Part shown: piece by piece, positions 47,568 through 49,232 of the stretch
How positions within the stretch are numbered: the stretch's first letter is position 1
Layout: every line of letters starts with the position of its first letter
Source of the DNA: Escherichia coli
GTDB taxonomy: Bacteria > Pseudomonadota > Gammaproteobacteria > Enterobacterales > Enterobacteriaceae
Assembly (NCBI RefSeq): GCF_003334255.1
Contig: NZ_QOWU01000022.1
DNA length: 64,000 nt
Direction: 5' to 3' (one strand)
Position numbers and translations under genes: made by a program
The notes under the pieces: generated by a model
Told to the model about the DNA's origin: nothing
Database searches by the model: none
Seen by the model: the letters and a program-made list of their open reading frames with translations, nothing else

Positions 47568-49232
47568 TCAGTTATCACGACGCACCGCCATCGAAACCGT
47601 AAAAATACCCCACTCATCAATCCGTTGTGTGCATTTATCAAATCCGGCATCACGCACGAGTGAATCCATCTCCTCTTGCGAACGCACGCGCATGACCCAC
47701 GGTTTACCATCTTTATGACTGGTTAACACCCCGGCAATCAGCTCCAGTTGTGGGTGCCACCGCTGCCCGGTGTAGATGAGAATGCCGCCCGGTTCGATGG
47801 CATTGGCAAGACCTGCGAGTGAGTTTTTTACCTGCTCATTTTCGGGAAAAAGCTCATACAGGCCAGAGACAATCGCCAGCGTAGGCCGCGGAGTTAACGC
47901 GCTGAGTTCCTCCGGGTTAAACGCATCGCCCTGTTCAAAACGCACCCGCCCAGACATTCCCCGTTGAGCAATCATCTCTTGCCCCTGTGCAACATTTAAC
48001 TCGCTGTAATCACGTAACAAAATATCGCTTACGGCAGGCTCGTTTGCCAGTGCATCCAGTACATAGCGCCCATGCCCTGCGGCAATGTCAACCACGCGGA
48101 CGGCTAAACCTTTGGCGTGGAGATCGGCAACGGCTTGTTTAATCAGTATTTGTAAATGGGTTTTGCGCTGGCGAATACCGCGCCAGCCAACACTGTTCAG
48201 GTAGATTTTGTCGATTAAGCGCCCGAATGCGTTACTGCCTTGCGGTTGATTTTGATAGACATAATCCAGCGAACTGCCTGAATCAAAGCCAGTGCTCATT
48301 CCGAGATGCAGGCCCGCAGAGTGCGCCCCGAACAATTTCATCGCCTTTCGCATAAAGCGATACGCCAAATCAACCGGCGATAATGGCACGGGTCCACCAG
48401 AAAGGAGCCGCCATCGATCCGCTGATGGTCCTGTGCGGTCTTCATGCTGATAATCAAATTTTTGCGACTTGTTAGCATATAAACGACTAATAAAGCTTTG
48501 CATTTTTTCAAATGCCTGCGCCCTGTTCTCTTCACCCAACGTGTCGTGATAAAAGCCTGGCAGCAGATGCAGCTCTTTCAGAGGGCTACGTAATCTCTGA
48601 TAAAAATCAATCTGCGGTTGACGATGCACCACATAGTCATCGCCTGATATCAGAAGTTGCGTGGGGAGCGTAATCGCCGCCGCATCGCTAACAATACGTT
48701 CAGACGTTTTATAGAGATCGAGCAAGATATTGACGGCAATCGCCCGTGTGATCAGCGGATCATTATTGAAACTCGCCACCCGTTGCCGATCGTGGGTCAA
48801 ATAGCGTCCTTTCACATAGGAATTAATAAAAAACAGACCACGCAGACGATGCCATAACGCCAGCGCAGGACGTGCCAGCGGCACATACAATTTAACCTTA
48901 AAGGCCGGAGAAGCCAGCACCAGCCCGCGAATTGCAGGCGCATAATCATGAACCCAAGTTGCAACCAGCACTGCGCCGACGCTTTGCGCGATCACAACCA
49001 CCTCTTCCAGTCCGACATGGCTGTCGCTGGCAGCAAAACGGATAAAAATCACGATGGGCAATAGCATAAAGAGGATGGGTTGTGACACCAACATCAACAG
49101 CAATCCGGTAAGAAGAGAAAGCGCCAGTGCAGCAAGAGTGATGTGATTCGCTGTAACGTGGTGATTATAAAGCCAAAACATCGTCGGCCTTAACAGCGAC
49201 TGAAAGAGCGGTTTTATCTGGTAGAGCATCAT
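47568..49232 (-). CDS. Chimeric ORF: short N-terminal membrane segment fused to an alpha/beta-hydrolase + SAM-methyltransferase body (apparent ynbA'-'ynbC in-frame fusion, about 554 aa)
   Basis: ORF 47568..49238; first ATG at 49232. N-terminal ~70 aa hydrophobic, then nucleophile-elbow-like AQSVG and MTase motif I ([10 protein letters not shown]). The locus is about 1.6 kb shorter than the K-12 ynbA-ynbB-ynbC span as I recall it. Confidence 0.6.

Follow-up and report, generated by a model that had tools for sequence, protein, structure and literature searches.

The ynbABCD genes of E. coli K-12 (ynbA, ynbB, ynbC and ynbD; b1408, b1409, b1410 and b1411) form a poorly understood lipid operon that is silenced by H-NS. 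In the E. coli DNA analysed here, a stretch of 64,000 nucleotides (the window), a single open reading frame stands where K-12 has ynbA, ynbB and ynbC, which raises the questions of how this frame arose, how far it has spread in the species and what is left of the function of the operon. The initial annotation had described one ORF of about 554 aa between ynbD and ydbD, and this ORF is indeed seen in the ORF list, from the ATG at 49232. An upstream TTG start extends the mechanical ORF to 47568..49238 (556 aa), but the ATG at 49232 is the counterpart of the K-12 ynbA start and gives 554 aa (Table 1). The ORF is flanked by ynbD, whose start it overlaps by 11 bp with its end, and by ydbD (49403-51709); the intergenic region upstream of ynbA differs from K-12 at 5 positions in 170 bp. 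E. coli G1/2, isolated from human faeces in Germany, has a chromosome that agrees with the window at every position from 43500 to 53500 (100% identity). RefSeq (PGAP) splits the interval in G1/2 into two pseudogenes, both of them partial: one is labelled 'class I SAM-dependent methyltransferase family protein, missing N-terminus', the other 'CDP-alcohol phosphatidyltransferase family protein, missing C-terminus'; the remark 'incomplete; partial in the middle of a contig' stands on both halves in G1/2, CP53, 14EC047, 17MR471, UMNK88 and others. The window also holds a ydbA-like autotransporter ORF of 1,901 aa (52841-58546, minus strand) in which a 30-bp unit for PPDDGGDTPV is repeated 9.3 times in tandem near the N-terminus (57961-58240); its counterpart in G1/2 is annotated by PGAP as a partial pseudogene with the N-terminus missing.

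Table 1 Coordinates of the features of the ynb locus, given as positions of the window
Feature	Position	Strand	Description	Basis
Fused ynbA'-'ynbC ORF	47568..49232	(-)	554 codons + stop	ORF list, translation, identity with G1/2
Deletion junction	49038-49046		plus strand ACGGATAAA, coding strand TTTATCCGT	three-way alignment with both K-12 breakpoints
ynbA-derived stub	49038..49232	(-)	codons 1-65	K-12 alignment, hydropathy
Truncated alpha/beta-hydrolase remnant	48528..49025	(-)	fusion residues 70-235	Pfam Hydrolase_4, 6eic alignment
Class I SAM-dependent methyltransferase domain	47580..48503	(-)	complete, fusion residues 244-551	Pfam Methyltransf_20
ynbD	46262..47578	(-)	PAP2 / dual-specificity phosphatase, intact	RefSeq annotation of the identical G1/2
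ynbA upstream intergenic region	49233..49402	(-)	promoter side of the operon, retained	K-12 alignment

In the K-12 derivative JM83, ynbA, ynbB and ynbC have 606, 897 and 1,758 bp, and the interval from ynbA to ynbC amounts to 3,275 bp (locus 4069-7343) versus 1,665 bp in the window, which agrees with the sizes of about 3.3 and 1.67 kb given initially. A BLAST comparison of the window with K-12 returned two collinear pieces with an offset of 1,610 bp and an overlap of 9 bp in the query, and the retained parts have 98% nucleotide identity to K-12. The alignment bore out the proposed losses: the 3' two-thirds of ynbA, the whole of ynbB and, at the start of ynbC, 279 nt are gone, and YnbA residues 1-65 are followed in phase by YnbC from residue ~94-97 to 585. 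An in-frame deletion of about 1.6 kb had been suggested; the size and the phase of the fusion stood, but 1,610 bp is not a whole number of codons. The two parts nevertheless meet in phase, as 1,610 equals 2 mod 3 and the K-12 frames of ynbA and ynbC are offset from each other by 2. K-12 YnbB gave no tblastn match anywhere in the window, and alignment, tblastn and the genome counts described below revealed neither a native single gene of this architecture nor a ynbB retained elsewhere.

The nucleotide alignment also located the junction. On the coding strand, the K-12 ynbA breakpoint reads CTTTTTATCCGT followed by ATGGCG, the K-12 ynbC breakpoint GAATTTGTCCGT followed by TTTGCT, and the junction in the window ATTTTTATCCGT followed by TTTGCT. 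A short microhomology, TCCGT (5 bp perfect, 49038-49042), lies inside TTT[A/G]TCCGT, a direct repeat matching at 8 of 9 positions, of which K-12 has copies at locus ~5539-5547 and ~7149-7157 and the window a single one. The crossover lies inside TCCGT because the window matches ynbA before and ynbC after this motif, and the three-way alignment showed no filler bases at the junction. A repeat at both breakpoints, one copy kept and no insertion are the marks of a microhomology-mediated deletion. An illegitimate event of this kind would have brought ynbA codon 65 next to ynbC codon ~97, probably by strand slippage or another RecA-independent joining of the TTT[A/G]TCCGT copies 1,610 bp apart. The loss of the interval with retention of one repeat copy resembles the spontaneous deletions between short direct repeats that Albertini et al. 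reportedly found in 1982 in the lacI deletion spectrum of E. coli. The ynb allele differs from these in that it is natural, is maintained in populations and has recombined flanks, and in that we infer its mechanism from the junction only.

Which activities could the fused protein have retained? A Pfam search of the chimeric protein found a truncated Hydrolase_4 domain, a complete Methyltransf_20 domain and no match to the CDP-alcohol phosphatidyltransferase family PF01066. Alignment to the PIP synthase 6h5a placed the signature D-x2-D-G-x2-A-R-x8-G-x3-D-x3-D of K-12 YnbA at residues 72-98; the signature is normally located on TM2-TM3 and is wholly past the breakpoint, the fusion keeping only residues 1-65 of YnbA, which comprise a helix at the N-terminus and, by hydropathy, a hydrophobic stretch with its centre at residues 37-62. 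The Hydrolase_4 (PF12146) match covers positions 71-238 of the 239 of the model in the fusion versus 3-238 in K-12 YnbC. The lost YnbC residues 1-93 contain the HG-x-x-EH oxyanion-hole loop and the D-x-R-G-H-G-x-S strand, and the deleted loop HRGHEHSGR (YnbC 40-48) aligns to HGLGEHARR of the monoglyceride lipase of M. tuberculosis (6eic); the fusion has no complete alpha/beta core with an oxyanion-hole loop. The loss of the phosphatidyltransferase motif and of the N-terminal part of the hydrolase, both claimed from the sequence alone, is thus shown by Pfam and by alignment to solved homologues, and the two motifs that had been quoted are in place. The nucleophile elbow AQSVG (residues 82-86, Ser codon at 48981-48983) aligns to GHSMG of the M. 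tuberculosis lipase, and candidate Asp and His regions are also kept, but a conserved Ser residue would not imply a folded active site. VDIAAGHG at residue 381 is the glycine-rich SAM-binding motif I of the Methyltransf_20 (PF12147) domain, which by sequence is of full length (1-309 of 309, E = 9e-152, 505 bits; 508 bits for K-12 YnbC). With the deletion, the CDP-alcohol phosphatidyltransferase YnbA has lost its catalytic motif and the YnbC hydrolase fold its N-terminal quarter, and YnbB, which is paralogous to CdsA, is gone altogether. The frame still encodes a membrane stub, the methyltransferase domain in intact form and, between them, a fragment of the hydrolase that is probably unable to fold.

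A survey of 5,426 complete E. coli genomes found the junction contiguous in 194 of them (~3.6%, ~1 in 28), queries of 601 and 1,301 bp giving the same result. The left arm, on the ynbC side, was found in 4,584 genomes, the deleted segment in 4,383; since the difference of 201 is close to the 194 junction carriers plus a few other lesions, the carriers keep no deleted segment elsewhere. Human, pig, poultry, cattle, frog, water and sediment isolates are all represented among them, as is the ETEC strain UMNK88. The junction is identical in the seven carrier records examined, LHM10-1 among them, and sits on at least five flanking haplotypes. An error of assembly or sequencing confined to one genome is refuted as the source of the deletion: the same junction occurs in 194 complete genomes that were assembled independently and stem from many laboratories and hosts; we found no point in favour of this reading and give it practically no credence. 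The survey also revealed other decay from ynb to ydbD: ynbC is frameshifted in O55:H7 USDA5905, ydbD is absent in ST95-32, and IS1 elements have inserted in ynbA or close to it in strain 5444 and EC23HZZ201. The ydbD gene, which encodes a DUF2773 bactofilin, is frameshifted in the carriers CP53 and 14EC047 (locus 3704-6009) and intact in the window. About 800 of the 5,426 genomes had no match to the ynb region at all, and five matches to the region lay on records classed as plasmids.

The spread of one junction over several haplotypes raises the question of whether the deletion occurred once or repeatedly. The carrier haplotypes read, those of the window, CP53, 14EC047, 17MR471, UMNK88, PEC408 and Z1323CEC0013, have the identical junction, and the flanks of the carrier alleles differ by 2-3%. 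The same junction could have arisen several times independently at a hotspot, each carrier haplotype being a separate event. Consistent with this, there are four-gamete violations on either side of the junction within 25-28 bp of it, the left arm of the window matches the intact allele of ECONIH4 and the right arm of CP53 the intact allele of BL21 right up to the junction, and the flanks of Z1323CEC0013 are identical to K-12. In several carrier haplotypes the match to an intact haplotype, which is not the same one in all of them, extends to within 16-25 bp of the junction, and a single-origin model therefore requires recombination end points very close to it. However, the repeat that would have to serve as hotspot is perfect over only 5 bp (8/9) and weaker than many direct repeats in the K-12 interval, so that a hotspot structure was rejected; a repeat search of the K-12 interval found no flanking inverted repeats that would bring the breakpoints together. 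Also against recurrence, the carrier haplotypes are chained to each other by three blocks that are exclusive to deletion alleles and each shared between different carrier haplotypes. The block 48290-48540 is common to the window and CP53 and was found with at least 99% identity in 143 genomes; the two genomes sampled from these both carry the deletion, and among intact alleles the closest one seen had 98.8%. About 180 bp to the left of the junction, including 48865A, 48918T and 49026A, are common to CP53 and UMNK88. The right arm common to UMNK88 and 17MR471 has four exclusive SNPs and was found with at least 99% identity in 111 genomes, the nearest intact allele seen having 98.4%.

The K-12-like flanks of Z1323CEC0013 (NZ_CP148427.1), whose fused ORF equals the K-12 sequence with the deletion applied, would be the clearest case of a second event, but this genome is a singleton among the carriers. 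When a hypothetical intact version of the UMNK88 haplotype was used as query, the best match was Z1323CEC0014 (NZ_CP148426.1) with 269 of 270 bases, the next best having 98.5%. Both arms of Z1323CEC0014 are identical to UMNK88 over 5.4 kb, and at the deletion site it carries 1,605 bp with no mismatch to K-12. One C is missing from a CCC run in this insert, which results in a frameshift in ynbB, and the first base past ACGGA is T, as at the deletion junction, whereas intact ynbC has C. The two genomes are adjacent samples of one project with reciprocal patterns, K-12 SNPs on the deletion in the one versus UMNK88-type SNPs on an intact locus in the other, and other isolates of the Z1323CEC project carry the UMNK88-type deletion. 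Given this reciprocal partner with its signs of polishing, an independent recent deletion in Z1323CEC0013 was dropped as an explanation. Both genomes are probably assembly artefacts; if the sets of long and short reads had been swapped during hybrid assembly and polishing, the reciprocal pattern would result. Because the repeat is weak, the exclusive blocks are shared and the case with K-12 flanks is a probable artefact, a single origin is favoured: one fairly old deletion with later recombination of its flanks is probably the better model, and recurrence is unlikely, although the window-type or the 14EC047-type allele may have a second origin. The deletion would have arisen once, long ago, and recombination with intact alleles would later have replaced its flanks piecemeal, with tracts whose ends would often fall at, or close to, the indel edge.

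Next to its history, the fate of the fused frame has to be considered. Deletion-exclusive variants, judged against seven intact alleles, were 18 nonsynonymous to 15 synonymous, and by segment the ratio was 6:2 (stub), 4:4 (hydrolase remnant) and 8:9 (methyltransferase domain). Pairwise pN/pS was 0.25-0.26 among carriers versus 0.16 among intact alleles, values that make for weak tests as recombination imports intact-type sequence and only 6-7 intact alleles were compared. The shift is modest and confounded by recombination, and dN/dS was dropped as a decisive test of function; the substitution patterns suggest relaxed constraint. In the window-type stub there are four private changes, all of them nonsynonymous, T2M (49228), K23N (49164), A50S (49085) and L62I (49049), which are absent from all intact and other carrier alleles examined. 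The nearest intact match to the window-type right arm among the 5,426 genomes had 98.8%, and the private cluster lies on one side of the junction; relaxed constraint and mutagenic repair are both possible causes of it. Some carriers have further lesions. In VE-T9 (NZ_AP027963.1), a window-type carrier, the hydrolase remnant has a 1-bp insertion in an A-run after the position equivalent to 48827 of the window, annotated as a frameshift, and ydbD has an internal stop; these lesions could be either real decay or homopolymer sequencing errors. In LHM10-1 (NZ_CP037903.1), which has a window-type allele, a Tn3-family transposon with aph(6)-Id and aph(3'')-Ib (strA-strB), IS1133 and a recombinase is inserted in the ynbA stub at 3932/3933, corresponding to 49071/49072 of the window and 29 bp past the junction. 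The matching annotation pattern indicates that CP52E probably shares this lesion.

These data have to be weighed against the idea that the fusion is a functional new protein, in which the N-terminal membrane segment of YnbA would anchor the YnbC methyltransferase at the inner membrane, where the enzyme would still be active, perhaps together with YnbD, and selection would preserve the open frame. All seven carrier haplotypes examined have an open frame at a divergence of 2-3%, the Methyltransf_20 domain is complete, the promoter region is kept, ynbD is undamaged and its start overlaps the ORF end, and the allele has persisted and spread. However, recombination with intact alleles alone could keep the frames open, and some carriers have a frame broken by a frameshift or a transposon. 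The deletion-exclusive variants in the methyltransferase domain and the stub point to a looser constraint than in intact alleles, the window has a private P491R in the methyltransferase domain, and the steps that produce the substrate, YnbA and YnbB, are gone. A function of the fused protein is possible on the sequence but has no positive support, and we consider the anchored enzyme improbable. The more far-reaching version, a retained membrane-tethered methyltransferase that would act with YnbD on an envelope lipid and be kept as an old balanced polymorphism that rewires the ynb pathway, appears about as improbable. Much more probably, indeed with high likelihood, the window carries a loss-of-function deletion allele of an accessory, dispensable ynbABCD operon, with the history of one old deletion and later flank recombination set out above. 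The pathway had been called probably inactive or rewired from the start; for the YnbA and YnbB steps inactivity is well supported by the loss of the motif and the absence of ynbB, and the loss of the output of the pathway would follow from it, while a rewired pathway would be a mere possibility. The locus as a whole may not be completely dead: the frame is open and both the methyltransferase domain and ynbD are intact.

How does this compare with what has been described for the ynb genes? A literature search found no paper describing the ynbA-ynbC deletion allele, most matches to 'ynb' being yeast media or unrelated genes. YnbB, a phosphatidate cytidylyltransferase paralogous to the CDP-diacylglycerol synthase CdsA, raises the level of the glycolipid MPIase when overproduced (Sawasato et al. 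2019, PMC6362211); a ynbB knockout had normal growth and near-normal MPIase, and the effect of YnbB was called 'marginal or auxiliary' (PMC6362211). The same YnbB is lost in the window, and the viability of the laboratory knockout fits the observation that natural carriers are healthy isolates; the loss studied here differs in that it occurs in nature, extends to YnbA and part of YnbC and is a polymorphism of the species. In K-12 the ynbA promoter is activated by BglJ-RcsB (PMC3950696). YnbD is the fourth PAP2 phosphatase, with no ascribed function, and did not complement C55-PP and PGP phosphatase mutants (PMC7413402). The region adjoining ynbC and ynbD is a known zone of genomic heterogeneity (PMC4951805). 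Compared with ynbABCD of K-12, the window has the same locus and neighbours (azoR, ydbD), a complete ynbD and the YnbC methyltransferase domain, but it lacks 1,610 bp with the YnbA motif, ynbB and the N-terminal core of the hydrolase, and has one ORF instead of three genes.

In sum, the allele is real, correctly read and ordinary, and it is already present in public genomes, where it is annotated as pseudogene fragments. Its wider significance is small and its population history tidy and unsurprising. It is a clean small example of a deletion polymorphism that persists while recombination replaces the flanks up to the edge of the indel, and the comparison at this locus exposed a probable chimeric pair of public assemblies. 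The carriers are ready-made natural ynbB-null backgrounds for work on MPIase, for which YnbB has been proposed as a backup for CdsA. For E. coli, the finding means that a poorly understood lipid operon is dispensable in nature, ~1 in 28 complete genomes being without YnbA activity and YnbB.
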